DNA of 64,000 nt from Candidatus Delongbacteria bacterium (GTDB lineage Bacteria; UBA4055). Shown here one piece after another: positions 5,123 through 51,436 of this stretch. Numbering within the stretch: position 1 is the stretch's first letter; each line of letters starts with the position of its first letter. The notes beneath the pieces are model-generated. The model saw only the letters and a program-made list of their open reading frames with translations, did not search any database and had not been told where the DNA came from. The stretch covers positions 27,636 to 91,635 of the forward strand of contig JAFGVM010000064.1 of the NCBI GenBank assembly GCA_016937995.1, written 5' to 3'. The translations under genes were made by a program, and so were the position numbers.

Positions 5123-6027
5123 TGAAAAATTATCTGACTAAAATATCTTTCTTTGTTCTACCGATACTTTTAACGTTGGTCTTCCTGGAATTTTATATTC
5201 GAAGTAAACCCAATGATTACTCATATAAGAATAAATATCTGACCGAGAATGCTAAAGATATCGAAACTCTGATAATTGGAAGTTCGCATAGTTTTTACGG
5301 TATCGATCCTCAGTATTTTTCAATGAATACTTTTAATGCTGCACATGTAGCTCAATCTCTTAAATGGGATTATTTTATCTTCGACAACTTCAAAGACAGG
5401 ATGACGAATTTAAAATTTCTTATTATTCCCATATCGTATTTTTCTCTGTTCTATGATCTTGAAGGGGGAGATGCTGACTGGAGGATCAAGGATTATAAGA
5501 TATACTATGATGCTGATGGACCCTCATGGAAGTATAATTTTGAGATACTGAACAGAAAGATCGTTCCTTTAGTGATACATGCATACAAACTTTTCTCCGG
5601 AGAAGATCATGGGATAAATTGTACTGATCTTGGTTTCGGGAAAAGGACAGCTTTGGTTGATATAGATATGGATACCTCTGGTAAGACAGCAGCTGAAATA
5701 CATACTGTCGAGAATTTTGATGATTATGATAGTAATATTGAGATATTGGAGAAGTTTATCATTGATTGTAGATCTATGGATGTGAAAGTATTGTTAATAT
5801 CTTTGCCTTCATGGGAGACTTACAGAAAGCATTTGAAAGCTGATCAGTTGAAGAAGACGGTTGATGCTTGTCTGGATCTGAGTGGAAAGTATGATAATGT
5901 TGTATATTATTCTTTTTTTAATGACAGAAGATTTGTTCTGGAAGATTTTGCAAATGCCGATCATCTGAATGATAAAGGAGCTGAAAAAATTTCGCGTCTG
6001 TTAGATGCCCTGATCGTTGCACCGTAG
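5122..6027 (+). CDS. membrane-anchored SGNH-like protein, AlgJ/DltD-type (copy 2, paralog of the previous gene)
   Basis: Overlaps the previous stop by 1 nt. It has an N-terminal transmembrane helix, an IIGSSHSFYG block and a C-terminal ADHLNDKG block matching copy 1. Confidence 0.5.
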   Translation: MKNYLTKISFFVLPILLTLVFLEFYIRSKPNDYSYKNKYLTENAKDIETLIIGSSHSFYGIDPQYFSMNTFNAAHVAQSLKWDYFIFDNFKDRMTNLKFLIIPISYFSLFYDLEGGDADWRIKDYKIYYDADGPSWKYNFEILNRKIVPLVIHAYKLFSGEDHGINCTDLGFGKRTALVDIDMDTSGKTAAEIHTVENFDDYDSNIEILEKFIIDCRSMDVKVLLISLPSWETYRKHLKADQLKKTVDACLDLSGKYDNVVYYSFFNDRRFVLEDFANADHLNDKGAEKISRLLDALIVAP

Positions 6028-7353: not shown

Positions 7354-7630
7354 GAGGAATATCATTTTTATACTAGCACTGTCAACTTTCATTTTTATAG
7401 GTTGCGGAAGCAAGGAAACTGGAGCAAAACTGAATTATGAGATCAAAGATGTAAATGGTGTAAAAGTTTATGCGAACAGTAAAGAACCTTCGGTTAACAA
7501 GATCGAAGTTAATTATGTTGAATCTTTCACCATTGCAGGTGATAGTGAGGATGAAGAGAAGAAATTTCAAATCAGGCAACCTATTGTTGATATTGATGAT
7601 AAAGGTAATGTCTATACTAAAGTAATTTAA
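7337..7630 (+). CDS. small lipoprotein, hypothetical
   Basis: Signal peptide with lipobox (FIFIGC-GSK). Overlaps the previous ORF by 17 nt and is followed by an intrinsic terminator. Confidence 0.4.
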   Translation: MMKDIKRNIIFILALSTFIFIGCGSKETGAKLNYEIKDVNGVKVYANSKEPSVNKIEVNYVESFTIAGDSEDEEKKFQIRQPIVDIDDKGNVYTKVI

Positions 7631-7742
7631 ATAACTACAAATGTCAATCATATAATAGGTTTCATAACTTTTCCTTGATGATCCCGATTTATCGGAGTTT
7701 TAGGCAAGCAAAAGAAATCTAAAAACAAAAACACTATAAAAG

Positions 7743-7779
7743 AGGGGACGGTAAGAAACCGTCCCCTACAATTTTTTTT
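7743..7779 (+). terminator. rho-independent terminator (AGGGGACGG-loop-CCGTCCCCT followed by T8)
   Basis: A perfect 9-bp GC-rich stem, 7-nt loop and T-run, lying downstream of the 7337..7630 ORF. Confidence 0.6.
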
Positions 7780-8022: not shown

Positions 8023-11000
8023 ATGAAAAATCTCATACCTCATTTGATTCAGGAAAAATATTTAAAAAACAAAACATCCGGATGGATCTTCGGTTCTGTA
8101 GTATCAATTGATCTGAAGGGTTTTACAAAAATGACTGAAGATCTTATGAAAGATGGTTACTATGGTGCAGAAACATTATCTGAAATCATTAATAAAGTTT
8201 TCGAGCCTGTAATTGATATAATATACAAAAAAGGCGGATTTGTCACAGCATTTATAGGGGATGCAATTACCGCAGTATTTCCTAATGAATATGCATTCAA
8301 TGCTGAATCTGCTTCTAAAGATATTTTAAAAAAGTTCAGCAAAATAAGTTCGATCTCAATAGAAAATTATAAATTCAATTTAAATATCAGGATAGGTATT
8401 TCCTATGGCAGGGTCATTTGGAAGATAGTTAATGTTCCTGAAAGATCAGTTTATTTTTTCAAAGGAAAAACTGTAGATCTAGCTGCAGATGCTCAACAAA
8501 AAGCTGTGCCTGGGAAAATAAAGATAGACAGATCGTATAAAATTGAAAATGGTAAACCGAATAATAAGAAAGCAGTAATAGAAAATATTTCAGAAGAAGT
8601 ATTAAAAGATTTTGTTCCTGATAATGTTCTTGAAATGAAAACACTGGGTGAATTCAGAGATATAGTATCAATATTCATTACCTTTAATGAAATCAGCACC
8701 GATCTGATCCTGTTGTCTAAGTTCCTTTGCTCTGAAAGTGTAAAATATAAGGGTTATCTAAATAAGATCGACTTTGGAGATAAAGGAGGTATTGCTCTTG
8801 TAGTATTCGGAGCTCCGATCAAGGTAGAAAAATACGCTGAACATGCATTGTCATTTGCAATTGAACTTGAAAAGAGATTTCCATTTATAAAGATCGGTAT
8901 AGCCAAAGGAATTACGTACTGTGGTTTTGTCGGTAGTGCTAAGAGAGCTGAATATACAGTTCTTGGTGATACAGTTAATTTGTCAGCCAGATTGATAAAT
9001 GTTACTCCTAAGGGAAAGATCAGAGTTGATGAGAACATGGCAAAGTATAATTATTCCGGCTTTGAATTTAAAACCGAAGGTAAGTATAAATTCAAAGGTT
9101 TTTCGAAACAATTGGCTGTCTTTTCACCTGAAGTAAGATCACATAAGAAACATTTGGATGTTGAAAGTGTATTCGTAGGCAGAGAAAAAGAAATGCAGGT
9201 CCTGAAAGATTTTATAGAACCGATATTTAAAAATAGATTCGCAGGATATATACAGATAAATGGGAATGCGGGTGTAGGTAAAAGCAGATTGGTAAGTGCA
9301 TTAAAAGATAATCTTGGAAAGAAGAAATTTAAGTGGTTCTTTATTTCATGTGATAATATCGTAAATAAAAGTTTTCAGCCTCTAATATCATTTCTTAATC
9401 AGTATATTCAACTGATAGAGAGTCTGGATATTTATGAAAAAACAAAAATATTTAAAGAACATTTAGGCGAACTTAAGAAAATAAGTAGATCAATAAAAGA
9501 TAATCTCAAGAAGATAGAATTTTTTCTTGGAAAATTACTCGGATTAAATGTAAATGATAAAACTTTTGAAAAACTTCCTTCACAGGATATATATGAAAAC
9601 ACATTATTTGCATTTAAACACTATATGTTGTCATACTGTACTAAATATCCGGTTATACTTGAAATAGATGATATCTATAAAGCTGATGAACAGACTCTTG
9701 ATGTAATAAAAGTATTATCGAGGTCCGAAGAAAATATCCCATTTTGCATTATAGGCTCTTCGAGATATCTTGATAATGGAGAGAAGTTCGTTCCGGGGTT
9801 AGATGATGTTGATGAATTTTCAATAGAATTAAAAACTTTGACAAGATCATCTGCAAGAGCAATTATTGAGTTTCTGCTTAGTGTTAAAATATCGGACAAA
9901 TTGTTCAATACAATTTGGGAAAAATCCACCGGAAACCCTTTTTATACCGAACAGCTGACACTTTTTCTTAAGGAGTCAAAATTTTTATATCTGGAAGAAG
10001 GTACAATGACCATTGATCCAAAGGAATATGCTATCCCGGAGAAAATAAGTTCTGTTATAATTTCAAGGATCGACAGATTAAGTTCAGAACTCAGAACTTC
10101 TATTAAAACAGCATCAGTGCTCGGTAAAGAATTTTCAGCTATGGTACTTTCAAAAATGCTTAAAAGTGAAGATATTGATTCACATTTAAAACTTATAGAA
10201 AAAGAAGCATTCTGGTCAAACATAACCGAGATGTTATACATCTTTAAACATGCACTTATCAGAGACAGTGTTTATCAAATGCAGTTGAAAAAAACTTTAA
10301 AAGTTCTACACAAACTTGCTGCAGAAACGATAAAGTCTGTTCATAAAAAGGGAATAGAGAAATATTATGCAGATATTGCGTATCATTATGAAAAATCCGG
10401 AGACAATAAAAATACAATAGATTATTTGTACAAGGCAGCTTTGTATGCCAATGAGAAATATTTTTTGAAGGAAAGCATTAACCACTATAACAAATTGTTA
10501 AAGTTTGAAACCGATAAAACAAATATCGCTGATATTAAATGCACTCTGGCAGATATGCTTTATACACTCGGTAAATGGGATGAAAGTAAAGCTCTGTATA
10601 AAGAAGCGGAAGTTCTGGCGAAAAAATTAAAGAATATTCGCCTTATGATAAGAGCAAAATCTGGTATTGCTGAAATAGTATTTGAAAAAGGTGATCCAGT
10701 AAAAGCTATGGAAATCTTTAAGAAACTTAATCTACAGGCAAAGAACAATAAATTGTACAGACTTCAGGCTGATATTTTAATTAATATGGGTGTTATAAAT
10801 CGGATATCATCAAAATTTGATGAAGCCCTTAAATGCTATAACTCAGTAATAAAACTAGACAAATTTAATAAAGATGACAGATTAATGTGCGGTGTTTATG
10901 ATAATCTGGGAGTTGTATATCTGAACAATAGTGAGTTAGGTAAAGCAAAAGAGAATTTCAATAAATCAAAAGAGATAGCAAAAAGAACTAATAATATCGT

Positions 11001-11964
11001 TGGTTTAATGCACGCAAGATCAAATGAAGGAATAATATATTACAGGCAGGGAAATACAAAAGAAGCTGAAAAGATATATTTGGAAGCTTTAAAAGTTGCT
11101 GAAGATATTGGACATCTGAGACATAAAAGTACAATCCTGGGGCATCTTGCTTCTATAAGTTATTACAACACTGACTATAATCAAGCATTGGATTATTTAA
11201 ATGAGGGTTACGATATAGCAAATGATCTCGGTGATAAAGCAAGTAAATGTTATTTGTTGTCGTCTATAGGTGTATTGAACCGGAGATTGGGGAATAATAA
11301 AAAAAGTTTTGAATCATTTGAAATCCAAAAAAAATTGGCAAAAGAATTAAATAATCATGAACAATATGCTATGTCTATCGGAAATATTGCTTTTATGCAT
11401 TCACTTCTAGGAAATTTTAAAAAAAGTAATAAGATGTATGAAGAAAGCAACATTCTTACTAAGAAAGTAAATGACAGGTACAGTCTGGGACATAATTATA
11501 TTAGTATGGGAGAGAATTTCAGGCACTTGAAAGATCACAAAAAGTCGATCGAGTATTACAAAAATGGATTAGTGATCGCGGAAGAATTTGATGCGAAATT
11601 TCTTCTGGTTTCGTCATATTATTATTTTGGAGAAGTATATTTTGATGTGAATGACCATAAGAATGCAAAGATATACTTTAGTAAGGCTTTAAACCTAGCT
11701 AAAGAGCTTGAAAGAGATGATTATATTTTCGACAGCAAATTAATGCTGATATTCATTGATAAAAAGATGAAGGATAAAGAAAAAGCACTCCTTGAATTAA
11801 GACCGGATAAACTTGGAGAAAATAAAAAAGCTAATCTTAACAGAATTCTTTTCCTTACTACAGGCATGAAGAAATATAAAACAGCAGCAGTGAAAATTTA
11901 TAGAGATCTATTTGATAAATTTGGATATTACGAATATAAAGTGGCTTTAGATCAATTAAAATAA
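8023..11964 (+). CDS. multidomain signalling protein: tandem class III nucleotide cyclase homology domains (CHD1+CHD2) - STAND/AAA P-loop NTPase - TPR repeats
   Basis: CHD1 spans residues about 20-200 with IDLKGFT and FIGDAIT (both metal-binding Asp present) but a degenerate GKTVDLAADA in place of the GDTVNLAARL block. CHD2 spans residues about 215-340 and lacks both Asp (FITFNEIS, FGAP) but keeps NKIDFGDKG and GDTVNLSARL (Asn and Arg present). There is a Walker A (GNAGVGKS) and Walker B (ILEIDDIY), and the C-terminal 600 aa are rich in TPR-like repeats. Confidence 0.75.
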   Translation: MKNLIPHLIQEKYLKNKTSGWIFGSVVSIDLKGFTKMTEDLMKDGYYGAETLSEIINKVFEPVIDIIYKKGGFVTAFIGDAITAVFPNEYAFNAESASKDILKKFSKISSISIENYKFNLNIRIGISYGRVIWKIVNVPERSVYFFKGKTVDLAADAQQKAVPGKIKIDRSYKIENGKPNNKKAVIENISEEVLKDFVPDNVLEMKTLGEFRDIVSIFITFNEISTDLILLSKFLCSESVKYKGYLNKIDFGDKGGIALVVFGAPIKVEKYAEHALSFAIELEKRFPFIKIGIAKGITYCGFVGSAKRAEYTVLGDTVNLSARLINVTPKGKIRVDENMAKYNYSGFEFKTEGKYKFKGFSKQLAVFSPEVRSHKKHLDVESVFVGREKEMQVLKDFIEPIFKNRFAGYIQINGNAGVGKSRLVSALKDNLGKKKFKWFFISCDNIVNKSFQPLISFLNQYIQLIESLDIYEKTKIFKEHLGELKKISRSIKDNLKKIEFFLGKLLGLNVNDKTFEKLPSQDIYENTLFAFKHYMLSYCTKYPVILEIDDIYKADEQTLDVIKVLSRSEENIPFCIIGSSRYLDNGEKFVPGLDDVDEFSIELKTLTRSSARAIIEFLLSVKISDKLFNTIWEKSTGNPFYTEQLTLFLKESKFLYLEEGTMTIDPKEYAIPEKISSVIISRIDRLSSELRTSIKTASVLGKEFSAMVLSKMLKSEDIDSHLKLIEKEAFWSNITEMLYIFKHALIRDSVYQMQLKKTLKVLHKLAAETIKSVHKKGIEKYYADIAYHYEKSGDNKNTIDYLYKAALYANEKYFLKESINHYNKLLKFETDKTNIADIKCTLADMLYTLGKWDESKALYKEAEVLAKKLKNIRLMIRAKSGIAEIVFEKGDPVKAMEIFKKLNLQAKNNKLYRLQADILINMGVINRISSKFDEALKCYNSVIKLDKFNKDDRLMCGVYDNLGVVYLNNSELGKAKENFNKSKEIAKRTNNIVGLMHARSNEGIIYYRQGNTKEAEKIYLEALKVAEDIGHLRHKSTILGHLASISYYNTDYNQALDYLNEGYDIANDLGDKASKCYLLSSIGVLNRRLGNNKKSFESFEIQKKLAKELNNHEQYAMSIGNIAFMHSLLGNFKKSNKMYEESNILTKKVNDRYSLGHNYISMGENFRHLKDHKKSIEYYKNGLVIAEEFDAKFLLVSSYYYFGEVYFDVNDHKNAKIYFSKALNLAKELERDDYIFDSKLMLIFIDKKMKDKEKALLELRPDKLGENKKANLNRILFLTTGMKKYKTAAVKIYRDLFDKFGYYEYKVALDQLK

Positions 11965-12309: not shown

Positions 12310-12353
12310 GCGATTTAGATTGCCACACATCCCGATTTATCGGGACAATGACA
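12310..12353. repeat. short dispersed repeat element (GCGA-TTTA-GATTGCCACAC + CCGATTTATCGG hairpin + AATGACA); second copy in inverse orientation at about 22185-22226
   Basis: Direct comparison gives 12310 GCGAtttaGATTGCCACACatcccgatttatcgggacAATGACA against the reverse complement of 22185-22226, GCGA-GATTGCCACACctcgtcaagccgaggttcgcAATGACA. The conserved flanks surround a hairpin of different sequence. Confidence 0.45.
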
Positions 12354-13124: not shown

Positions 13125-13154
13125 AAAAGAGGGGAGGGTTGGGAACCCTCCCCT
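13125..13154 (-). terminator. intrinsic terminator for the M42 peptidase gene (stem AGGGGAGGGTT/AACCCTCCCCT, loop GGG, U-run on the minus strand)
   Basis: An 11-bp GC-rich perfect stem followed by CTTTT on the minus strand. The sequence resembles the 7743 terminator (AGGGGA.GGT...ACC.TCCCCTACAA). Confidence 0.5.
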
Positions 13155-13170
13155 ACAAAAGTGTTTTTTG

Positions 13171-17499: not shown

Positions 17500-18642
17500 A
17501 TGAAAAGATTAATTGTAGCTCTTGTAGTAATAGTGTTATTTTTATTGATCTTCACATCATGCAGTGATGACAGCAGTTCTGAACCGGGCAATAAAGCTCC
17601 TGTAATTACCAGTATCGTATCAAATCCAGCCACAGTTGAGTTAGGGCAGACAGCTACAGTTACGTGTACAGCTTCAGATGCAGATGTGGATGTTTTAACT
17701 TATTCATGGAACAATACAGGTGGAACTATTTCAGGAAGTGGATCAAGTATCACATGGACTGCACCTGACACAGTAGGGAATTATAGTGTTACTTGTGAAG
17801 TCAGCGACGGGGAAGACTCAGTGAATGACGGAGTTAATATAAGTACTTTTGAAACTGCAATACCCGGTGCAATGGTTTCTGTTACTGGTGGTACTTTCAC
17901 TATGACCGATCCTTCTAAGCAGACTTATGTGACTGTTACAGTTAGTGACTTTAGCATTGGAAAGTATGAAGTTACTCAGAAAGAGTGGGTAGATTTAATG
18001 GGCAGTAATCCTGCGTCTTATGATCCTACGAACAATATTGGAGTTGGAGATAATAATCCTGTTTTTCATATCGGCTGGTTCGATATTCTTGTTTTCTGCA
18101 ACCAAAAAAGTATGGCAGACAGTTTAACCCCGTGTTATTCTATAAATGGTTCGACAGATCCTGACAACTGGGGTGTTAGACCAATTTATAGCTCTGATCC
18201 GACTTTTGCAGCATGGAATGCAGTAATATGTGACTGGGATGCTACAGGTTACAGAATGCCGACTGAAGCAGAATGGGAATTCGCAGCAAGAGGTGGAGTA
18301 AACTGGACGGATGATTATACTTACAGCGGAAGTAATATTATTGGTGATGTAGCCTGGTATAATGATAACTCAGGTAGTGAACTTCATATTATCGGAACCA
18401 AATTACCTAATCAACTTGGTATTTATGATATGACAGGTAATCTTTACGAATACTGCTGGGACTGGTATGCTGCTTATACTGATAATGCTACTGATCCTAC
18501 AGGAGCACCGACCGGAGATATGCGTATTGTAAGAGGCGGTTCGTGGATGAGTATTCCTGAAAATTGTGTCGTTAACGGACGCTACAGAGAGTATCCGAAT
18601 ACAAATTATGATTATAATGGTTTTAGACTGGTTAAAAGATAA
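17500..18642 (+). CDS. lipoprotein with Ig-like/PKD-like domain fused to an FGE-sulfatase (SUMF1/formylglycine-generating-enzyme family) domain
   Basis: Signal peptide plus lipobox (IFTSC). Residues about 30-110 form a beta-rich Ig-like domain (VTCTASD...YSVTCEVSDGED). The FGE-domain hallmarks are YEVTQKEW, GYRMPTEAEWEFAARGG and RIVRGGSW. Confidence 0.7.
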   Translation: MKRLIVALVVIVLFLLIFTSCSDDSSSEPGNKAPVITSIVSNPATVELGQTATVTCTASDADVDVLTYSWNNTGGTISGSGSSITWTAPDTVGNYSVTCEVSDGEDSVNDGVNISTFETAIPGAMVSVTGGTFTMTDPSKQTYVTVTVSDFSIGKYEVTQKEWVDLMGSNPASYDPTNNIGVGDNNPVFHIGWFDILVFCNQKSMADSLTPCYSINGSTDPDNWGVRPIYSSDPTFAAWNAVICDWDATGYRMPTEAEWEFAARGGVNWTDDYTYSGSNIIGDVAWYNDNSGSELHIIGTKLPNQLGIYDMTGNLYEYCWDWYAAYTDNATDPTGAPTGDMRIVRGGSWMSIPENCVVNGRYREYPNTNYDYNGFRLVKR

Positions 18643-18649
18643 AATAGAA

Positions 18650-18672
18650 AAGCCCCGATTATGGGGCTTTTT
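18650..18672. terminator. bidirectional intrinsic terminator between convergent genes (AAGCCCC-GATTAT-GGGGCTT flanked by A-run and T-run)
   Basis: A 7-bp GC stem with TTTTT on the plus strand and TTTTCTATTTT on the minus strand. It lies between the FGE lipoprotein gene (+) and hcp (-). Confidence 0.6.
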
Positions 18673-18712
18673 AATTAGATTCTGAAACAAGTTCAGAATG
18701 ACGATAATTTTA

Positions 18713-20383
18713 TTACTTACCTGCCATCATAGCTTCTACATCACCTTTTACATCACCAATAGGCTTGATATTGAAATTCTGTACAAGGACATTTATAACA
18801 TTTGGCGATAAAAATGCTGGAAGGGTTGGTCCTAAGCGGATCCCTTTAACACCAAGATGCAATAATGCAAGTAATACGGTCACAGCTTTCTGCTCATACC
18901 ATGCAATATCGAATGAAATTGGAAGTTCATTGATATCTTCAAGTCCGAATACTTCTTTCAATTTCAGAGCTATCACAGCTAGAGAATATGAATCGTTACA
19001 CTGACCGGCATCGAGTACTCTCGGGATTCCGCCGATGTCACCAAGGTCAAGTTTGTTGTAACGGTACTTGGCACATCCTGCGGTCAGGATTATAGTGTCT
19101 TTCGGAAGTTCTTTTGCTACTTCAGTGAAATAATCTCTCGAATCATGTCTTCCGTCGCAACCCGCCATTACAACAAATCTCTTGATAGCTCCGGACTTGA
19201 CCGCTTCAACGACCTTGTCAGCCAGCGCGATGACCTGAGCGTGAGCGAATCCGCCGACGATATTTCCTGTCTCGATTTCTGTCGGTGCCGGTAAAGTCTT
19301 TGCCAGTGCGATCACTTCGGAGAAATCTTTCGCTTCGCCTTTAGCAGGTATAGCAATATGTTTCACACTGTCAAAACCGACATTATTAGTTGTGAAAACC
19401 CTGTTCTTATAAGAATCTTTTGGAGGGATCAAGCAATTAGTTGTCAAGATTATTGCTCCATTGAATGATTCGAATTCAGTTCCCTGTTTCCACCATGCAT
19501 TTCCATAGTTGCCTACGAAATGATCATATTTCTTGAAAGCAGGATAATAGTTTGCAGGAAGCATTTCACTGTGCGTATATACATCAACTCCGGTTCCTTC
19601 AGTTTGCTTTAACAATTGCTCCATATCTAACAGATCATGTCCTGAAATTAAGATAGCAGGATTATTTCTAACACCGATATTTACTTCAGTGATCTCAGGA
19701 TTTCCATAAGCTTCTGTATTTGCAGTATCTAAGGCAGCCATTGCATCAACTGAATATTTCCCGGCTTCCATTACTAACCCAACAAGGTCCATCACTTCCA
19801 GAGAATCATCCAGAGTTGCAAGAAGTCCTTTTTCCATGAACATTACTATCTCTTTCACTTCCTTACCAAGTCTTAGTGCATGATCAGCATAAGCAGCCAT
19901 ACCTTTGATTCCAATTGTAAGCAGTTCTCTCAATGAACGGATATCCTCATTCTCAGTTCTCAAAACACCGACCTGAGTAGCTTTTTCATCAATATTCTCA
20001 TCTGTTACAAAGAAAGTTGCAGCATCATGCTGTCCCAATTCTCCAACATCAATTCCCATTTCAGCTACTTTCTTTTTTCCCATCTCACGCATCTCGATAG
20101 TTTCCTTGATCGCTTTTACTAAGTAATTTCTGTCGAAATTTGCATTAGTTATTGTCGAGAACAGCATCTCAAGGATAAATTTATCCATTTCGTTGCAGGA
20201 TTCTGCGTATTCCTTTCTTGTTTCCAGTGAAGCACCTGCCCTGAAGATAAGCATTCCTTTTAATGCGTGGATCAGAAGATCCTGTAAATTTGCTACATCT
20301 GCAGTTTTTCCGCAGAATCCTTTGGCGTAAGAACAGCCTTTGTTGCCGATTGTTTCCTGGCATTGAAAACAGTACATACTCAT
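18713..20383 (-). CDS. hcp: hydroxylamine reductase / hybrid-cluster protein
   Basis: The N-terminal Cys cluster ([27 protein letters not shown]), length 556 aa and a conserved C-terminal hybrid-cluster ligand region. There is an AAGGAG Shine-Dalgarno. Confidence 0.85.
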
Positions 20384-21249: not shown

Positions 21250-21313
21250 AAGTCAGAAGTCAGAAGTATTTCTCAACTCACAACTCACAACTCACAACCC
21301 ACAACCCACAACT
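21250..21313. repeat. intergenic microsatellite-like tandem repeats: AGTCAGA x2 then 5.9 copies of heptamer CAACYCA
   Basis: Read directly as agtcagaagtcagaagt at 21250-21266 and caactca caactca caactca caaccca caaccca caacta at 21273-21313. This lies between the Fe-S protein stop and the cupin start on the minus strand. Confidence 0.8.
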
Positions 21314-22136
21314 ACAGAATACTTCCACTTATAGATATCACATCCAGCTTTACCATTTTGCTTACACCTGCAATTTCAAGTGCTTTTTGTACGATGACTT
21401 CCATTCCACCACAGCAGGGAACTTCCATTCTGACAACATGGATAGACTTGATATTTTTATTTTTGAATATATATGCAAGTTTTGAAATGTATCTTTCAAC
21501 TCCCTGATCAAGCTTAGGACAGAAAATTATCAGTCTTTTACCTTTTAGAAATTTTTCATGAAAATTCGGATATGATGCCATAACTCCGTCTGCTGCAATC
21601 AGAATATCGGCATTGTCAAAACTCGGATCATTCTGATTTATCAAGTGAAGTTGAACCGGCCAATGTTTCAATTGCGACTTGCCGCTTGCAAGAACAGGTT
21701 CAATATTATGGTTATCAGGAATTGTCTGTGGAGCACTTCCAGGACATCCGCCGGTAGCACAAACGCTTGGTGCATCTCTGAATTGAGGAATATCAATACC
21801 TTTCTTAGTTAAGATCTGTATAGCCTGATTTACATATTTGTCAAGGCCGTGATCGTTCAGATGTTTCAAATGAGCTTTGATCGTATTAGTTCCGGCAGGG
21901 ATAATATTTTCGATGACGAGAGCTTCATCGTATTCATCAGCCTCTCTTTCTTCAGTAGAAATTGCTCCAACAGGACAGTTACCTATACATGCTCCAAGCC
22001 CGTCACAAAATAAGTCACTGATCAATCTTGCTTTTCCATCGATCATTTGCAAAGCTCCCTCAGGACAGTCAGGTATGCAGTTCCCGCATCCGTTACAAAG
22101 TTCAGCATCTATTTTTATTATTTGTCTTTTAGCCAT
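21312..22136 (-). CDS. 4Fe-4S dicluster ferredoxin-domain protein with Cys-rich C-terminal domain
   Basis: Two CxxCxxCxxxCP motifs (CNGCGNCIPDCP and CDGLGACIGNCP), plus a C-terminal region with CATGGCPGS and PCCGG Cys motifs. Confidence 0.55.
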   Translation of the reverse strand: MAKRQIIKIDAELCNGCGNCIPDCPEGALQMIDGKARLISDLFCDGLGACIGNCPVGAISTEEREADEYDEALVIENIIPAGTNTIKAHLKHLNDHGLDKYVNQAIQILTKKGIDIPQFRDAPSVCATGGCPGSAPQTIPDNHNIEPVLASGKSQLKHWPVQLHLINQNDPSFDNADILIAADGVMASYPNFHEKFLKGKRLIIFCPKLDQGVERYISKLAYIFKNKNIKSIHVVRMEVPCCGGMEVIVQKALEIAGVSKMVKLDVISISGSIL

Positions 22137-22300
22137 TTTATATCTCCTTTTATGAGACGTTGCGGTGCAACGTCTTTACGGGTTTGTCATTGCGAACCTC
22201 GGCTTGACGAGGTGTGGCAATCTCGCTCTATACTGTCATACTCGGGCTTGCCCCGGGTATCCAGGCGTATCAGAGACGCTCATGTAGAGCGTCTTTACGG
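22137..22300. repeat. GC-rich (about 52% GC), hairpin-dense intergenic element flanked by 11-bp direct repeats (CGTCTTTACGG)
   Basis: Hairpins AGACGTTGC-GGT-GCAACGTCT (22155-22175), CCTCG-GCTTGA-CGAGG and AGACGCTC-ATGTA-GAGCGTCT (22274-22294). The direct repeat CGTCTTTACGG lies at about 22171-22181 and 22290-22300. It contains an inverse-orientation copy of the 12310 repeat core. Confidence 0.6.
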
Positions 22301-22876
22301 TTCGATCATTACTTTCACATTGTTCCAGAGGTTTATTCCTTCTTTTTTCAGATCGAATGCATTTCCGTTGTAACACCATTGAAGGATCAGTAGTCTCATT
22401 GAACCAACTATTGTTCTAAACACCGAAACAGGATCAAGTTCCTTTTTAATTAGTCCGGACTTTTGTCCTTCTTTGATGAATCCGGTCACAGTCCCTTTAT
22501 GACCATGCATGATAGATCTTGCTTTGTTTGATAGTTCTTCATCATTAACGAAAATTCCTTCTGAGAACATTACTTTTGCCAGATCAGGATCTGAAGAGAA
22601 CTTTTCGTATCTGTCGGTAAGAAATAATTCTATTTTTTCAATAGGGGAGAGAGTACTACCGGCAGGGATATCCGGCATCTCTGATATATCCTTGAAAAGG
22701 TCAAGTATTCCCATTAGAATTGCATGCTTACTTTCATAATGTCTGTATAAAGCAGCTTCGGATACACCTATCTTTGCAGATAAGTTCTTTGTTGTAAGGT
22801 TCTGAATCCCTTCCTGTGCAATAATTGAGATCGAAGTTTTCAGGATCTGCTTTTGTCTTTCGGTCAGTTCACTCAT
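22295..22876 (-). CDS. TetR/AcrR-family transcriptional regulator
   Basis: The N-terminal HTH (TKNLSAKIGVSEAALYRHYESKHAIL) and an approximately 190-aa all-helical protein. Confidence 0.8.
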   Translation of the reverse strand: MSELTERQKQILKTSISIIAQEGIQNLTTKNLSAKIGVSEAALYRHYESKHAILMGILDLFKDISEMPDIPAGSTLSPIEKIELFLTDRYEKFSSDPDLAKVMFSEGIFVNDEELSNKARSIMHGHKGTVTGFIKEGQKSGLIKKELDPVSVFRTIVGSMRLLILQWCYNGNAFDLKKEGINLWNNVKVMIEP

Positions 22877-22887
22877 GATTTTTCCAT

Positions 22888-22907
22888 GTTAGTAAGTGTT
22901 CACTAAC
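22888..22907. promoter_or_regulatory. imperfect palindrome GTTAGTAAGTG-TT-CACTAAC immediately upstream of the tetR start; candidate TetR operator
   Basis: Perfect outer arms GTTAGT/ACTAAC and inner arms AGTG/CACT, placed 12 nt upstream of the tetR ATG in the divergent region shared with the second cyclase-STAND gene. Confidence 0.4.
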
Positions 22908-23026
22908 AAAGATAATACAGAGAGTATTGATAGTTCATGATTAATGTCAGGAAAGGAAAGATAATTGAAAATTAAAATCAAAAGAATAAAGAATTTCAAC
23001 ACAGAGGGACCGTAACCTTTCGTCTA

Positions 23027-23051
23027 TTTTTATTGCGACTCGCAATAAAAA
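23027..23051. promoter_or_regulatory. perfect 25-bp palindrome TTTTTATTGCGA-C-TCGCAATAAAAA in the 5' region of the second cyclase-STAND gene
   Basis: 12-bp perfect arms with a single-base centre, 45 nt upstream of the preferred ATG at 23096. The track's TTG start at 23033 falls inside it. Confidence 0.45.
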
Positions 23052-23095
23052 TCCCTATTTTATCCAAAACCATGAAAATATACGAGGAAGAAACT

Positions 23096-26000
23096 ATGTC
23101 TCAACTGAACGGAGCATTCCCGAAGCATATTCATTCGCCTGAGTATTATATGAATAAACAGTTCATGTTCATTGATATATCAGGGTTTACACCATTGTGT
23201 GATAAATTTATAAGTGAGAGCAGTTACGGAGCAGAAAAGATCGGTGATCTGGTGAACACAGTTTTTAATCCAATTATAGATTTTGTATTTGAAAAAGGTG
23301 GGGATGTTATTTCTTTTGCAGGTGATGCATTGTTCGTTGCAGTTGAAAAGAAATCGGTCAAAGCGGTACAGGATATGTCTCAGAAACTTATAAAAGAACA
23401 GACCATAGATAAAAGTCTTGCCATTACAATAGATATGCTGAAAGATGAATACTACCCGAATATTATAAAGTCAGCTGAAGGAAGTTCATTTAGCTACTAC
23501 CCACAGAAAGATAAAAATGATCTATTGAAAAATACTTTCCCTGACGAGATATATGAGATCTATCAAAGTAATTTCAGAGGTGAACTTAGAGCTGTACCTG
23601 TTTTCTTTATTCATATTTCAGAAAAATATTCTATAAACAAAATAAGACCGTTGCTTGAATTCATTACAGAGAAATCAAAAGAGAATTCTGTTTATATCAA
23701 TAAAATAGAATATCTCGACAAAGGCTGGATGATATTGCTTTCAGCGGGATCACCTGTATATTCCTCCGAAGCACCTGTCAAAATATATGAACTGTTATCC
23801 AAATTCTCCAAGAAAGCTAAAACTTATAATATCCCTGTGCAGATAGGTGGAACTCTTCAAAGAGGTTACTGCGGTATCATCGGTAATGAAAAGAGATGGG
23901 AATTTACTTTCTTAGGGTCAAATGTCAACCTTGCAGCCAGGATCGCCTTTTCTTCAGAAAATTACAAGATCTCCTGTGATGAGTCATTTGCATATTCTTC
24001 TCAAAACCTTTTGAAGTCTGAGTCTATAGGTATAAAGACTTATAAAGGAGTAGGTGAAAGAGAAATCTTTGAAATCACGGGTAAGATCAATGATACAAAA
24101 AATATTTTCGTAGGCAGGGAGAAAGAGGTACTATCATGCTTGAATTTCTTTTCAGGTGACAGAAGAGCTTTTGTACTTTTGAACGGTCCTTCAGGAATTG
24201 GAAAAACAGTACTTGCAGAACATATAATTCAATCTTTGGGTTATAAGTTTCTTATAAGATTAAAAGGTGTTTTCGGAAATGAATCAGCTTTCTCCTTATT
24301 CGATAATTTCTGTGATAAAAATTCGGGAGCAGCTGAAATATTCAAAAAATTCAAAGCTATAAAGCAACCAACTCTAATTTATATAGATGACCTGCATTTT
24401 GCCGATGACAGCAGTTTATTTATGTTTCACAGAATGATCAACGAAGGTAACCCGTTCGTTAATTTCATAGCTACAACGATAGGAAGGGAAAAAGTTAAGA
24501 TCACACCTTTGTCTTACTATGAATCTTTGATAATTGATCTGCAGCCGTTCGACCCGAAAGATATTCAGCATATAACGAAGATGATATCAGGAATTAATAT
24601 AACATTGAAGACCAGTAAAATGCTGCACAGATCAACTCAGGGAAATCCTTTATTCATTACTAAAATACTGCCTTATATAACAAAAGATATTGAAAATTCA
24701 GGAAAAGTTCCCTATTCACTTCAGGAAATAATCTTGATGAAATTAAATGAAATTCCTGATAAAGGACCGGAATTCATTGATGGGGGCTCTGTTTATGGTG
24801 ATATTTTTGATCATGGTGTGGTTAGAGAAGTAATAAATCTGAAGGATAAAATATTTAGAGACATTGTTTCAAAGGCGGAGAACGAAGGATTAGTAAGAAG
24901 ATCTCTTTCCCGTGATGAGATGGAGTTCTCGAACACAATTATAAGAGAAATTATCTATGAAAGACTTTTAAAAAAGAAGATCGATTTTTTCAGGATAAAA
25001 ATAGCAGAAGCTATTGTTGACTCAAAGACTAAAGATCTGAAAAAATTATATAAAGCAGTGACAATGTACTTTTCTGCAAATGATAATAGAGCTCTACCTT
25101 TAGCTCTTAAACTTGTTGAAGAATTTAAAAGAACAAAAGATCATGGTACTTTAAGAAGTATCGTTCAAAGATCTTTTGAGTTCATTAAAAAGAATAACTT
25201 ATATTCAAAGGCTTATGATTTTATTGAGTTGTTTTCAAGATCTTCTCAATTTGTTATTGGTGCAAAACTAACAACAATACTCGAAGAAATAGCCTTCAAG
25301 ATAACTGATTGGAGAAATAATGAAAAATTACTTCTCTATATTGCAAGATTAGTTTTTGAGATACAGTTCAAAGCACCCGAGGAACTTCTGAAAAAATATC
25401 TGGAATTGAAAGGTGAAGATAAACATTATCTTTGGACAAAAGTAAAGACCTGTGCTTATGTAATACCGCAAAACGAAGCTGTGAAGATATTTTACGATCT
25501 GAAAAATAAATTCGAAGGCAATGAAAGGGTAGAGTTCTATATAGATTTTGTGGGTTATGCATTCTTTATCACAGGGAATGTGGACATGGAAAAAGAAGGT
25601 ATAAAGGAATTGCAGAGACTCGAATCATCTATGCCTGTTTATTTAAAAGTATCTTACTTGTTCATAAAGAACAGCATAGCTATTCACAGGGACGATATGA
25701 CTGAATCAAAAAAATGTCTTGATGAAATTACAAGTTATAATAAAAAAGATGTGGATCTTAGTGATTCTTTCTCGATATACAATGATTATTCGATCCTTTA
25801 TCTGAATTTGGCCTATGAAAATTTTGATAAAGAATATATTAAGAGATCTTTAAAGTATTCCATTAAAGCTGTTAAGGCAATGACAGACCTCCAAATAGAA
25901 GCTGATCTGCCTTTGATGACGACCAATCTTGCAAGTTACTATATGACCAGTGGTTATGTGAAGAAGGCGGAAAGAACTTATCTTGAAGGCTTGTATTATG

Positions 26001-26716
26001 GACTAAATATCGATCATCCTGTTGAGGTACTTTATACAAAATCTAGGATTGCTTTTCAAACTTCTGCATCAGGAGCTTATGCTCTTTCGATTAAGTTATC
26101 AGATGAAGTTATTCAGGGAAAGATCACAGATATCCTATCCGGTTCATATACCATCAAATATCTATATGGTGGTAAAAAGGAGAATGATCTCAAAACAGCC
26201 AAAAAATATGCTCTGGAGATAGCTAAATTCGGATCTGCAAAATGTTACTGGGAGATGTCAAGATTAATGACCCAGCAGGCATTTGCTGATAATGATATCA
26301 GTGAAATGAAAAAGATCAGAAGAGACTTGATGAAATGGAGAAAATATACTCAAAGGGCGGGAAATCTGTTTGCAAATGAAACTACGATCAAAATACTTGG
26401 ATTGATGAGTGGAATTAAGACAGAAGCTGTAAAAGTAAGAGACAGATTGTCAAAACTTGAAAAACTGAATGTTAATTTCAGTCTTCAAGGTAAATGCTGC
26501 TATGCTTTAGGACTTCATCATAAAGATATTGATCTTCTCAAAAAAGCAAAGAAATATGCTTTAAAGATGAGAGAATATCCGTTCGTTTTAAGGATCGAAA
26601 AAGAACTATACAGGATCACACAAGATAATTACTGGTCCCGAAGGATGAAAATATCAGAGAAGAAGCTTAAAGAAGTGAATAAGATAAAGAGTATTGAGGA
26701 ATTCTTTGGATACTAA
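23096..26716 (+). CDS. multidomain signalling protein, paralog of the 8023 gene: CHD1 + CHD2 cyclase homology domains - STAND P-loop NTPase - TPR repeats (the track ORF starts at a TTG at 23033; the ATG at 23096 has a GAGGAAG Shine-Dalgarno)
   Basis: CHD1 has FIDISGFT and SFAGDAL (both Asp present). CHD2 has FFIHISEKY and LLSAGSP (Asp absent) but LGSNVNLAARIAF (Asn/Arg present). Walker A is LNGPSGIGKT and Walker B is TLIYIDDLHF. A long TPR-like helical C-terminus gives the same order as the 8023 protein. Confidence 0.75.
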   Translation: MSQLNGAFPKHIHSPEYYMNKQFMFIDISGFTPLCDKFISESSYGAEKIGDLVNTVFNPIIDFVFEKGGDVISFAGDALFVAVEKKSVKAVQDMSQKLIKEQTIDKSLAITIDMLKDEYYPNIIKSAEGSSFSYYPQKDKNDLLKNTFPDEIYEIYQSNFRGELRAVPVFFIHISEKYSINKIRPLLEFITEKSKENSVYINKIEYLDKGWMILLSAGSPVYSSEAPVKIYELLSKFSKKAKTYNIPVQIGGTLQRGYCGIIGNEKRWEFTFLGSNVNLAARIAFSSENYKISCDESFAYSSQNLLKSESIGIKTYKGVGEREIFEITGKINDTKNIFVGREKEVLSCLNFFSGDRRAFVLLNGPSGIGKTVLAEHIIQSLGYKFLIRLKGVFGNESAFSLFDNFCDKNSGAAEIFKKFKAIKQPTLIYIDDLHFADDSSLFMFHRMINEGNPFVNFIATTIGREKVKITPLSYYESLIIDLQPFDPKDIQHITKMISGINITLKTSKMLHRSTQGNPLFITKILPYITKDIENSGKVPYSLQEIILMKLNEIPDKGPEFIDGGSVYGDIFDHGVVREVINLKDKIFRDIVSKAENEGLVRRSLSRDEMEFSNTIIREIIYERLLKKKIDFFRIKIAEAIVDSKTKDLKKLYKAVTMYFSANDNRALPLALKLVEEFKRTKDHGTLRSIVQRSFEFIKKNNLYSKAYDFIELFSRSSQFVIGAKLTTILEEIAFKITDWRNNEKLLLYIARLVFEIQFKAPEELLKKYLELKGEDKHYLWTKVKTCAYVIPQNEAVKIFYDLKNKFEGNERVEFYIDFVGYAFFITGNVDMEKEGIKELQRLESSMPVYLKVSYLFIKNSIAIHRDDMTESKKCLDEITSYNKKDVDLSDSFSIYNDYSILYLNLAYENFDKEYIKRSLKYSIKAVKAMTDLQIEADLPLMTTNLASYYMTSGYVKKAERTYLEGLYYGLNIDHPVEVLYTKSRIAFQTSASGAYALSIKLSDEVIQGKITDILSGSYTIKYLYGGKKENDLKTAKKYALEIAKFGSAKCYWEMSRLMTQQAFADNDISEMKKIRRDLMKWRKYTQRAGNLFANETTIKILGLMSGIKTEAVKVRDRLSKLEKLNVNFSLQGKCCYALGLHHKDIDLLKKAKKYALKMREYPFVLRIEKELYRITQDNYWSRRMKISEKKLKEVNKIKSIEEFFGY

Positions 26717-51266: not shown

Positions 51267-51290
51267 GTTTTTCTCCGTAAAAAAGTTAGA

Positions 51291-51321
51291 AATTAGAAGT
51301 CAGAGGTTAGAAGTCAGGTCA
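51291..51321. repeat. direct repeats TTAGAAGTCAG(A/G)G x2 in the promoter region of the zinc-ribbon gene; the same CTGACTTCT core is repeated at 21250-21266
   Basis: gttagaaattagaagtcagaggttagaagtcaggtcac lies upstream (minus strand) of the 50862..51266 start. On the minus strand it reads CTGACTTCTAACCTCTGACTTCTAA. Confidence 0.5.
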
Positions 51322-51436
51322 CATTGAGTTAGTTTACTCCGATTTATCGGAGAAATGTTAGGCCTGATTTTTATAACGAAAAGTCTTATACTTCCACTAA
51401 CTCAGTATGACTTTTCTGTCTACTGGTCACTGACCA

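Follow-up and report, generated by a model that had tools for sequence, protein, structure and literature searches.

We analyzed a 64-kb stretch of contig JAFGVM010000064.1 from a Candidatus Delongbacteria bacterium, called here the window. The study concerns the gap between a tetR gene and the gene of an iron-sulfur protein (FeS), both on the minus strand. The original prediction for this gap, made from the letters alone, described a hairpin-dense island, rich in guanine and cytosine (GC), that might be a small mobile element or a structured RNA. We consider it highly probable that the island is a cluster of four repetitive extragenic palindromic (REP) units, similar to the bacterial interspersed mosaic elements (BIMEs) of Escherichia coli. 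The cluster would have accumulated in the first intercistronic gap of an autoregulated operon of Candidatus Delongbacteria. The features of the locus, with the units numbered and assigned as we propose, are the following.

22137-22294, 158 bp: tetR–FeS gap, the spacer between the minus-strand tetR and FeS genes
22295..22876, minus strand: tetR (TetR_N and TetR_C_4 domains), the operon's first gene; the final codon and the stop, CCG TAA, fall within the 5' consensus of a REP unit
22273..22298, minus strand: H4, GTAA-tagged REP unit, GTAA / AGACGCTC-TACAT-GAGCGTCT / C
22234..22263, plus strand: H3, TGTC-tagged REP unit, TGTC / ATACTCGGG-CTTGC-CCCGGGTAT / CCA
22185..22224, plus strand: H2, TGTC-tagged composite unit, TGTC / ATTGC GAA [CCTCG-GCTTGA-CGAGG] TGTG GCAAT / CTC
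22154..22179, minus strand: H1, GTAA-tagged REP unit, GTAA / AGACGTTGC-ACC-GCAACGTCT / C
22124..22149, minus strand: FeS start region, with the Shine-Dalgarno sequence AAGGAG at 22144-22149 and the ATG at 22134-22136
21312..22136, minus strand: 4Fe-4S dicluster / AF_0155-family gene (FeS), second gene of the operon

The gap has 51.3% GC, against a mean of 34.2% for the window. The contrast claimed by the original prediction (about 52% against about 30%) is real, and only its background figure was too low. Only 0.19% of the 158-nt windows along the stretch match the GC content of the gap. The others lie in the interior of hcp, the last gene of the operon, and in two tRNA genes. On either strand, four separate hairpins are predicted, and the fold is better than that of 200 out of 200 shuffles (z = -3.7 and -4.0). 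The description of a GC-rich, hairpin-dense gap holds, and every feature listed for it was found in its place. Two of the hairpins are perfect inverted repeats, AGACGTTGC-GGT-GCAACGTCT at 22155-22175 and AGACGCTC-ATGTA-GAGCGTCT at 22274-22294. The three hairpins first named are all present. A fourth one, ATACTCGGG-CTTGC-CCCGGGTAT at 22238-22260, had not been noticed. The first and the last (H1 and H4) are two copies of one 38-nt motif with 71% identity, as had been proposed.

There are two exact occurrences of the 11-mer CGTCTTTACGG, at 22171 and 22290, against about 0.25 matches expected by chance; the scan and the shuffles both tolerated one mismatch. The element GATTGCCACAC...CAATGACA is present at 12318 (plus strand) and 22222 (minus strand), which confirms the inverse-orientation copy announced for the interior. 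Likewise, the 108-aa open reading frame (ORF) that spans the island at 22047-22373 (plus strand) is spurious, as suspected. It overlaps, in antisense, the two real genes. The island accounts for this ORF and for the compositional anomaly.

H1 and H4 share one design on the minus strand. Each hairpin has exactly 21 nt, AGACG-N11-CGTCT. The stems are of 9 and 8 bp and the loops of 3 and 5 nt, respectively. The stop codon of tetR is the TAA of the H4 tag (22295-22297), and the H4 stem opens at the first base past the stop. At the other end of the island, the H1 stem finishes 5 nt upstream of the FeS Shine-Dalgarno sequence. The 11-mer is the complement of CCGTAAAGACG. More precisely, it is made up of the H1/H4 unit's tag and first half-stem, which form the 5' part on the minus strand. 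Other gaps contain single copies of the consensus CCGTAAAGACG...CGTCTC, e.g., at 5019 of L122 and at 5583 and 6544 of L125 (L numbers designate the loci and contigs used for comparison). The 11-mer is therefore part of a conserved GTAA unit that occurs singly, and not a target-site duplication. Its presence at both ends of the island, stated in the original prediction, is correct; its reading as a target-site duplication or terminal repeat is not.

A metagenome scan for CGTAAAGACG-N11-CGTCTC gave at least 134 matches, on contigs with a GC fraction from 0.30 to 0.65. Among the 134 listed matches, 62 have a stem of at least 9 bp within the unconstrained N11, and about 0.5 are expected by chance. 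Most real copies among those listed run on as ...CGTCTCTAC, which is GTAG on the opposite strand. The AGACG units form a multi-copy, dispersed family with compensatory stem variation, in metagenomes as in Delongbacteria gaps. In GTAG REPs, the tag is unpaired and often provides the stop codon of the upstream ORF; stems measure 5-13 bp and loops 2-20 nt (PMC3733652). Judged on their sequence, H1 and H4 appear to be a lineage variant that resembles this GTAG-tagged superfamily.

GTAA/AGACG REPs are also found in tandem arrays on metagenome contigs (L134 2981-3325, L175 7187-7326, L196 113-223 and L204 11-216). Examples of their spacing are five copies, four of them 106 nt apart, and three copies 42 nt apart. 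Assembly JAESGE01 supplies many loci, so some genomes hold the AGACG family at high copy number. All AGACG-type units carry CGTCTC/GAGACG at the base of the stem (e.g., 22154-22159 and 22273-22278), which we take to be the type IIS site of BsmBI/Esp3I. Its presence is probably incidental.

H2 and H3 present the tag TGTC and read from the plus strand. In the CGTC-tagged REP superfamily, which takes in Neisseria dRS3 and Rickettsia RPE-4/RPE-6 (Di Nocera, De Gregorio and Rocco 2013, PMC3733652), the tag is often TGTC, and CCTC is also accepted. The stems of 8-9 bp nearly always open with A-T, T-A, the loops have 4-5 nt, and a CCA-like tail follows. These REPs form mainly head-to-head dimers, with a negligible share of head-to-tail arrangements. 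They have been reported from 5 phyla, for the most part in gaps between ORFs of the co-directional or convergent kinds, and are not known to have a transposase (PMC3733652). H3 consists of a 9-bp stem that opens A-T, T-A and holds one G.T pair, a 5-nt loop, CTTGC, and the tail CCA (22261-22263). It has all four structural features of the superfamily: tag, stem, loop and tail. H2 is composite. Its basal stem, ATTGC/GCAAT, has 5 bp, followed by an internal loop (GAA/TGTG), a distal stem of 5-6 bp, a loop of 6 nt and the tail CTC. H2 and H3 belong to the CGTC-tagged superfamily or stand next to it. The H3 type was seen at two sites only, in the window and in L125, and its exact pattern had no matches in viral contigs.

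A perfect 27-nt AT-rich palindrome, ATTTTTATTGCGAGTCGCAATAAAAAT, lies at 23026-23052, in the divergent region between tetR and a 1227-aa cyclase-like gene. Its core, ATTGCGA/TCGCAAT, is the same as the H2 basal stem. It is not in the orthologous loci examined.

The TetR protein encoded in the window is identical to one listed at NCBI from a Candidatus Delongbacteria MAG. The orthologous loci were those with TetR homologues 61-80% identical and the tetR–FeS pair kept. Where the contigs reach, all of them except L128 also keep the cupin-cupin-hcp genes. At the site of the island they show the following.

L287, TetR 80%: AT-rich tetR–FeS gap of 57 nt that has no hairpin and is a true empty site
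L122-124 and L289, TetR 77% and 68%: GTAA/GGGTCGCA-GATC-TGCGACCC, whose tag supplies the stop codon, and a unit identical to H1
L125-127, TetR 75%: one unit, GTAA/AGACGACC-TACAT-GGACGTCT
L128 and L288, TetR 61% and 74%: unrelated hairpins overlapping the stop codon

The orthologous Delongbacteria sites hold zero, one or two of these units, and the window holds four. The unit of L125-127 differs from H4 by paired stem changes, and one A.A mismatch stays. H1 recurs in the FeS-cupin gap of L122. In L125, the same gap presents a near-identical H3, followed by an H1-like unit. The units are separate in these relatives: L122 has H1 without H2-H4, and L125 has the H4-like unit alone, with the H3 and H1-like pair in another gap. 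The stretch with the FeS Shine-Dalgarno sequence and start is conserved in all orthologues, whatever their REP content. The comparison with orthologous loci, which the original prediction had suggested, yielded an empty site in L287. Further copies turned up in the window, in relatives and across many other bacteria. The units behave as modules: they are repeated elsewhere, and their presence at orthologous sites varies. Since the modules occur independently and in other gaps, the island is a mosaic of units and not one element. The idea of a small non-autonomous mobile element stands in part: the island is made of small, repeated palindromic DNA, and it is not a single element bounded by terminal inverted repeats.

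Of the six lineages sampled, five (the window, L122, L125, L128 and L288) have a hairpin that adjoins or overlaps the stop codon of tetR, though the hairpins are not of one type. About 12 of the 13 GTAG- or GTAA-tagged (GTAR) units in Delongbacteria loci are in sense orientation, and these are not all independent insertions. Both observations are weak hints that position and strand matter.

H2 is a member of a widespread family, AGATTGCCACAC...TTCGCAATGACA. Using the pattern AGATTGCCACAC-N10-24-CAATGACA, we found its framework in at least 120 genome stretches of about 14 phylum-level groups (by organism name), with several copies per genome. The hosts include Oscillospiraceae/Faecousia, Chloroflexota, Patescibacteria, Spirochaetota, Nitrospirae, Helicobacter, Arcobacter, Bacteroidota, Ignavibacteriae, Atribacteria, Desulfobacterota, Proteobacteria, Planctomycetota, Melainabacteria and Sumerlaeota. 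Bacillota, Campylobacterota and Nitrospirota are also named among the groups, and Delongbacteria are now added. Isolates are present among the matches (Helicobacter rodentium ATCC 700285 and Pseudoflavonifractor MSJ-30). The framework also occurs in 38 viral contigs, tailed-phage contigs included. The exact 39-nt H2 sequence, too specific a pattern, had no match among genome contigs.

The four bases before CAATGACA, which the pattern did not anchor, are TTCG or CTCG in 76 of the 85 unique sequences listed. The centers of the units vary, often with compensation. A perfect hairpin of at least 5 bp is present in 43 of the 85 unique centers, compared with 3.5% of shuffles; the remaining centers are non-hairpin, of the TCGCTTCGCTCG type. 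Half of the units (56/112) have an inverted partner upstream, mostly 14-25 nt off and with the tags outside, against a background of 2.4%. These are head-to-head dimers. The gaps are co-directional in 36 cases, convergent in 17 and divergent in 5, with no orientation bias (16 vs 20). The H2 family shares with the CGTC superfamily its multi-copy presence in intergenic gaps of the co-directional and convergent kinds. An all-against-all clustering of the ORFs in 120 loci revealed no gene linked to the H2 units. It gave housekeeping families only (ABC transporters, sigma-70, GGDEF/EAL, LepA and tRNA synthetase).

In three tailed-phage contigs from IMG/VR (L249 3454-4490, L260 2288-3312 and L270 6140-7176), two direct H2 units stand around a phrog_3584 replication-initiation gene. 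This gene holds a VHHHLIV motif and adjoins a small-terminase gene. We considered its product as a possible HUH mobilizing enzyme and rejected it. The three contigs are near-identical, and the sole other full-length homologue, in L279, is about 5 kb from its unit. The flanking probably reflects REPs that occupy phage intergenic gaps.

We give a small chance to the idea that the H2 unit is a pan-bacterial mini-element, TGTC-ATTGCGAR...YGTGGCAAT-CT, with about 24 near-invariant flanking nucleotides around a freely varying center. If so, its breadth would imply repeated horizontal spread or a widely conserved recognizing enzyme or binding protein. Such a protein could be the missing mobilization factor of the CGTC-REP superfamily. 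So broad a distribution of H2 does not sit easily with the systems of REP doublets (REPINs) and REP-associated tyrosine transposases (RAYTs), for which vertical, lineage-specific inheritance has been described. The spread of H2 bears on what mobilizes or binds CGTC-type REPs, a question that phylogenetic profiling could approach. A literature search with the motif strings returned unrelated primer matches only, and the strings are not in the supplementary files of Di Nocera et al.

The window holds eight REP-like units in all. Besides the four of the island, they are:

12317..12353, plus strand (tag on the minus strand): second TGTC unit of the H2 family, with the local mini-hairpin ATCCCGATTTATCGGGA as its center
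13130..13156, minus strand: GTAG-tagged 21-nt REP, GTAG / GGGAGGGTT-CCC-AACCCTCCC, between the peptidase M42 and Bax1-I genes, sense
7743..7769, minus strand: GTAG-tagged 21-nt REP, GTAG / GGGACGGT-TTCTT-ACCGTCCC; a T-run follows on the plus strand
18676..18703, minus strand: CGTC-tagged REP-like unit, CGTC / ATTCTGAA-CTTGT-TTCAGAAT / CTA, AT-rich, 9 nt past the hcp stop

The stems of the two GTAG units (GGGAGGGTT at 13130-13156 and GGGACGGT at 7743-7769) are G-rich. The loop CTTGT of the CGTC-tagged unit at 18676-18703 resembles the H3 loop CTTGC. Hairpins of 20-21 nt with a GTAG or GTAA tag and other stems are present also in the relatives L122, L125 and L128. Among them, L122 holds GTAG/AGACGCGA at 7552, and L128 likewise has true GTAG units.

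A mini-hairpin, ATCCCGATTTATCGG, occurs alone at 7681 and 51336, and nested as the center of the TGTC unit at 12317-12353. Its form is (A)TCCCGATTTATCGG(G/A), at 7681-7695, 12329-12343 and 51336-51350, and also at 187-201 of L149. These three matches in the window compare with 0.05 expected, in a scan that tolerated up to 2 mismatches. The pattern suggests nesting or center-swapping among very small palindromic repeats. Heptanucleotide tandem repeats (CAACTCA x5.7 and AAGTCAG x2.6) and related AT-rich repeats of the TTCTAAC/TCAGAAG type fill other gaps, at 21250-21267 and 21274-21313 (the FeS-cupin gap), at 51290-51320 and in the tetR–FeS gap of L287. They recall the heptamer STRR repeats of cyanobacteria.

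The operon runs tetR-FeS-cupin-cupin-hcp. Its remaining features are:

22923-22950, minus strand: promoter-like site CTGACA-16-AATACT, upstream of tetR
22887-22908, minus strand: inverted repeat TGTTAGT-N8-ACTAACA, between the promoter-like site and the tetR start
18713-20383, minus strand: hcp, last gene, with two cupin genes between FeS and hcp
18641-18672, minus strand: intrinsic terminator, AAAAAGCCCC-ATAAT-CGGGGCTTTTCTATTTT, after hcp and the CGTC unit

The promoter-like site and the inverted repeat are kept in all seven lineages (the window, L122, L125, L128, L287, L288 and L289). The repeat TGTTAGT-N8-ACTAACA is probably the autoregulatory operator of TetR. The original prediction had placed the island in an operon leader. 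The gap is instead intercistronic, inside the operon, with the conserved promoter and operator upstream of tetR. No promoter- or terminator-like site was found inside the island. With a promoter and operator upstream of tetR, a terminator after hcp and nothing like a promoter or terminator in between tetR and FeS, the island is most likely transcribed within a polycistronic mRNA from tetR to hcp. Two paralogous ORFs of the window, at 8023-11964 (1313 aa) and 23033-26716 (1227 aa), have class III nucleotidyl-cyclase and AAA_16 ATPase domains. The first also presents TPR repeats, and the second is divergent from tetR.

We propose that each unit is a mobile palindrome that is not autonomous and is copied in the form of a single-stranded DNA hairpin. 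RAYT-type Y1 enzymes mobilize GTAG REPs in this form (PMC6006769). On the model of the E. coli REPs, the copying of the GTAG-like units would fall to a RAYT-type HUH/Y1 enzyme. The units may pile up at this site because the gap tolerates them. The co-transcribed island would give an mRNA with four stable hairpins. In E. coli, REPs separated from the stop codon by less than 16 nt cut translation of the upstream gene, and REP hairpins stabilize upstream mRNA (PMC12306157). By analogy, H4 at the tetR stop might make terminating ribosomes stall, which would reduce the output of TetR, and might shield the tetR segment against 3' exonucleases. H1, which lies shortly before the ribosome-binding site of FeS, could serve as a 5' stabilizer or mark a processing boundary. 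In this way, the cluster would decouple the expression of tetR from that of the downstream genes, and could lower or stabilize it relative to FeS-cupin-hcp.

Several points weigh against this interpretation. H1 and H4 carry the tag GTAA, which PMC3733652 does not list among its degenerate variants of GTAG (GTGG, GYAG, GTRG and GTMG). Canonical REPs have a paired basal stem of at least 7 bp, at least three G/C in the first four bases and a loop of 2-5 nt (PMC6006769). The first four stem bases of H1 and H4, AGAC, include two G/C. A tblastn search of the 64-kb window with two queries, IS200 TnpA and E. coli RAYT, a weak test, found no RAYT/Y1 gene and nothing below E = 0.4. H3 pairs better on the antisense strand, with a G.T pair there and a C.A mismatch in the mRNA. 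H2 departs from the CGTC stem, with its 5-bp basal stem and internal loop, and from the tail consensus, with CTC. In addition, H2 and H3 are arranged head-to-tail, 9 nt apart. The eight REP-like units give a copy number for 64 kb only and not for the genome. Finally, the functional steps would all follow by analogy with E. coli, and we hold them with lower confidence.

The closest competitor differs from the proposed reading in the functional part only. It states that the units are purely parasitic or relict palindromes without effect on the operon, and we regard it as a serious possibility, somewhat short of even. It is consistent with the variable presence of units among close relatives and with the REP-free site. 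REP families are also unevenly distributed and have been argued to be parasitic in some hosts (PMC3733652). On the other side, hairpins recur exactly at the tetR stop in several lineages, and the GTAR units are predominantly sense. The E. coli precedent for effects near stop codons (PMC12306157) points in the same direction.

A dedicated, structured cis-regulatory RNA, such as a riboswitch-like leader or attenuator for the FeS-cupin-hcp genes, is quite improbable. The very stable predicted structure, the location directly upstream of the FeS ribosome-binding site and the repeated hairpin at the tetR stop, though of different types, would suit it. However, no family was returned by Rfam scans at gathering or permissive thresholds that covered the window and the island as well as 12 related loci; at gathering, neither the window nor the loci had a match. 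The best scores were 12-19 bits, against thresholds of 38-86 bits. L287, with the most similar TetR, has no hairpin at all, and the make-up of the gap differs in every lineage. The same modules appear in unrelated gaps and organisms, in both orientations, and there is no terminator-like T-run. The discrete structured RNA of the original prediction fails with it: the Rfam scan it had proposed gave no family, the relative with the most similar TetR lacks the island, and the TGTC unit occurs in either orientation with respect to transcription.

We find it very unlikely that the AGACG-N11-CGTCT palindromes serve as operators that a protein, such as the neighboring TetR, would bind to control the downstream genes. 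They are two palindromes of 21 bp with conserved outer half-sites and a constant 11-bp spacing, and one adjoins the FeS ribosome-binding site. Nevertheless, the repeat TGTTAGT-N8-ACTAACA, kept in all seven lineages, is a better candidate, and the TetR-operator reading of the AGACG palindromes was rejected on this conserved operator-like repeat upstream of tetR. Moreover, the compensatory changes in the inner stem indicate recognition of a hairpin and not of a duplex. The same palindromes are found in unrelated gaps (FeS-cupin and downstream of hcp) and on many unrelated metagenomic contigs, and L287 has none.

The weakest reading is that of one miniature inverted-repeat transposable element (MITE), about 130 bp long, between tetR and FeS, with the CGTCTTTACGG copies as target-site duplication or terminal direct repeats. 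It could draw on the rare 11-mer at both ends and on an interior missing from orthologous sites, but we set it aside as the least probable of all. The 11-mer is embedded in a repeated hairpin unit of 26-38 nt whose consensus turns up on its own in other gaps and genomes. In place of terminal inverted repeats there are the direct copies H1 and H4, the units are separate in relatives, and the window holds no second copy of the whole block.

For annotators, GC-rich hairpin islands of this type in AT-rich uncultured genomes are to be read as REP clusters, and not as genes or riboswitches. REP clusters are already well known; what is new is the Delongbacteria lineage, the GTAA tag variant and the composite TGTC unit. 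GTAG-like and CGTC-type REPs are hereby extended to Candidatus Delongbacteria. The orthologous sites with 0, 1, 2 and 4 units make a natural series for asking whether REPs beside stop codons and ribosome-binding sites tune the ratio between repressor and target.

Compared with GTAG REPs and the REPINs moved by RAYT (TnpA-REP) enzymes, H1 and H4 likewise have an unpaired tetranucleotide directly 5' of the stem, which measures 8-9 bp and closes a loop of 3-5 nt. In both, a common tag goes with differing stems in many subfamilies, the units lie close to the 3' ends of ORFs with the tag supplying the stop codon, and true GTAG sister units exist in the window and in relatives. The differences are the tag (GTAA, not GTAG or GTGG), a basal stem less rich in G+C, the occurrence of H1/H4-type units as singletons or direct copies and not as inverted REPIN doublets, and the lack of a RAYT gene in the weak tblastn search of the 64-kb window.

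With CGTC REPs, H3 shares the TGTC tag variant, the 9-bp stem from A-T/T-A, the 5-nt loop and the unpaired CCA tail. The tag is shared by H2 as well, along with a basal stem that begins AT. At other loci, the H2 family dimerizes head-to-head, in co-directional or convergent gaps and with no linked transposase gene. In contrast, H2 has a 5-bp basal stem, a conserved GAA/TGTG loop, a variable distal hairpin or non-hairpin center and a CTC tail. The head-to-tail order of H2 and H3 in the window is another difference, as is the extent of the H2 framework, with about 14 phylum-level groups and viral contigs against 5 phyla. The island lacks the marks of a MITE: the ends are direct copies, the 11-mer lies within the unit consensus and the block is single in the window.

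Cyanobacterial small dispersed repeats, in which very small hairpins are nested in one another, were reportedly described by Elhai and colleagues in 2008. The nesting is the same here, with ATCCCGATTTATCGG alone and inside a TGTC unit; the lineage is different, and the likeness is one of description only. The E. coli BIMEs offer the model for the island as a whole. Their binding of IHF, gyrase or DNA polymerase I is not known for the island, which also has no defined linker motifs. It mixes two superfamilies, GTAG-like and CGTC-like, in the orientation + - - +, where BIMEs alternate strictly. In both, several REP types are clustered in one intercistronic gap of an operon, in mixed orientations and with short linkers.

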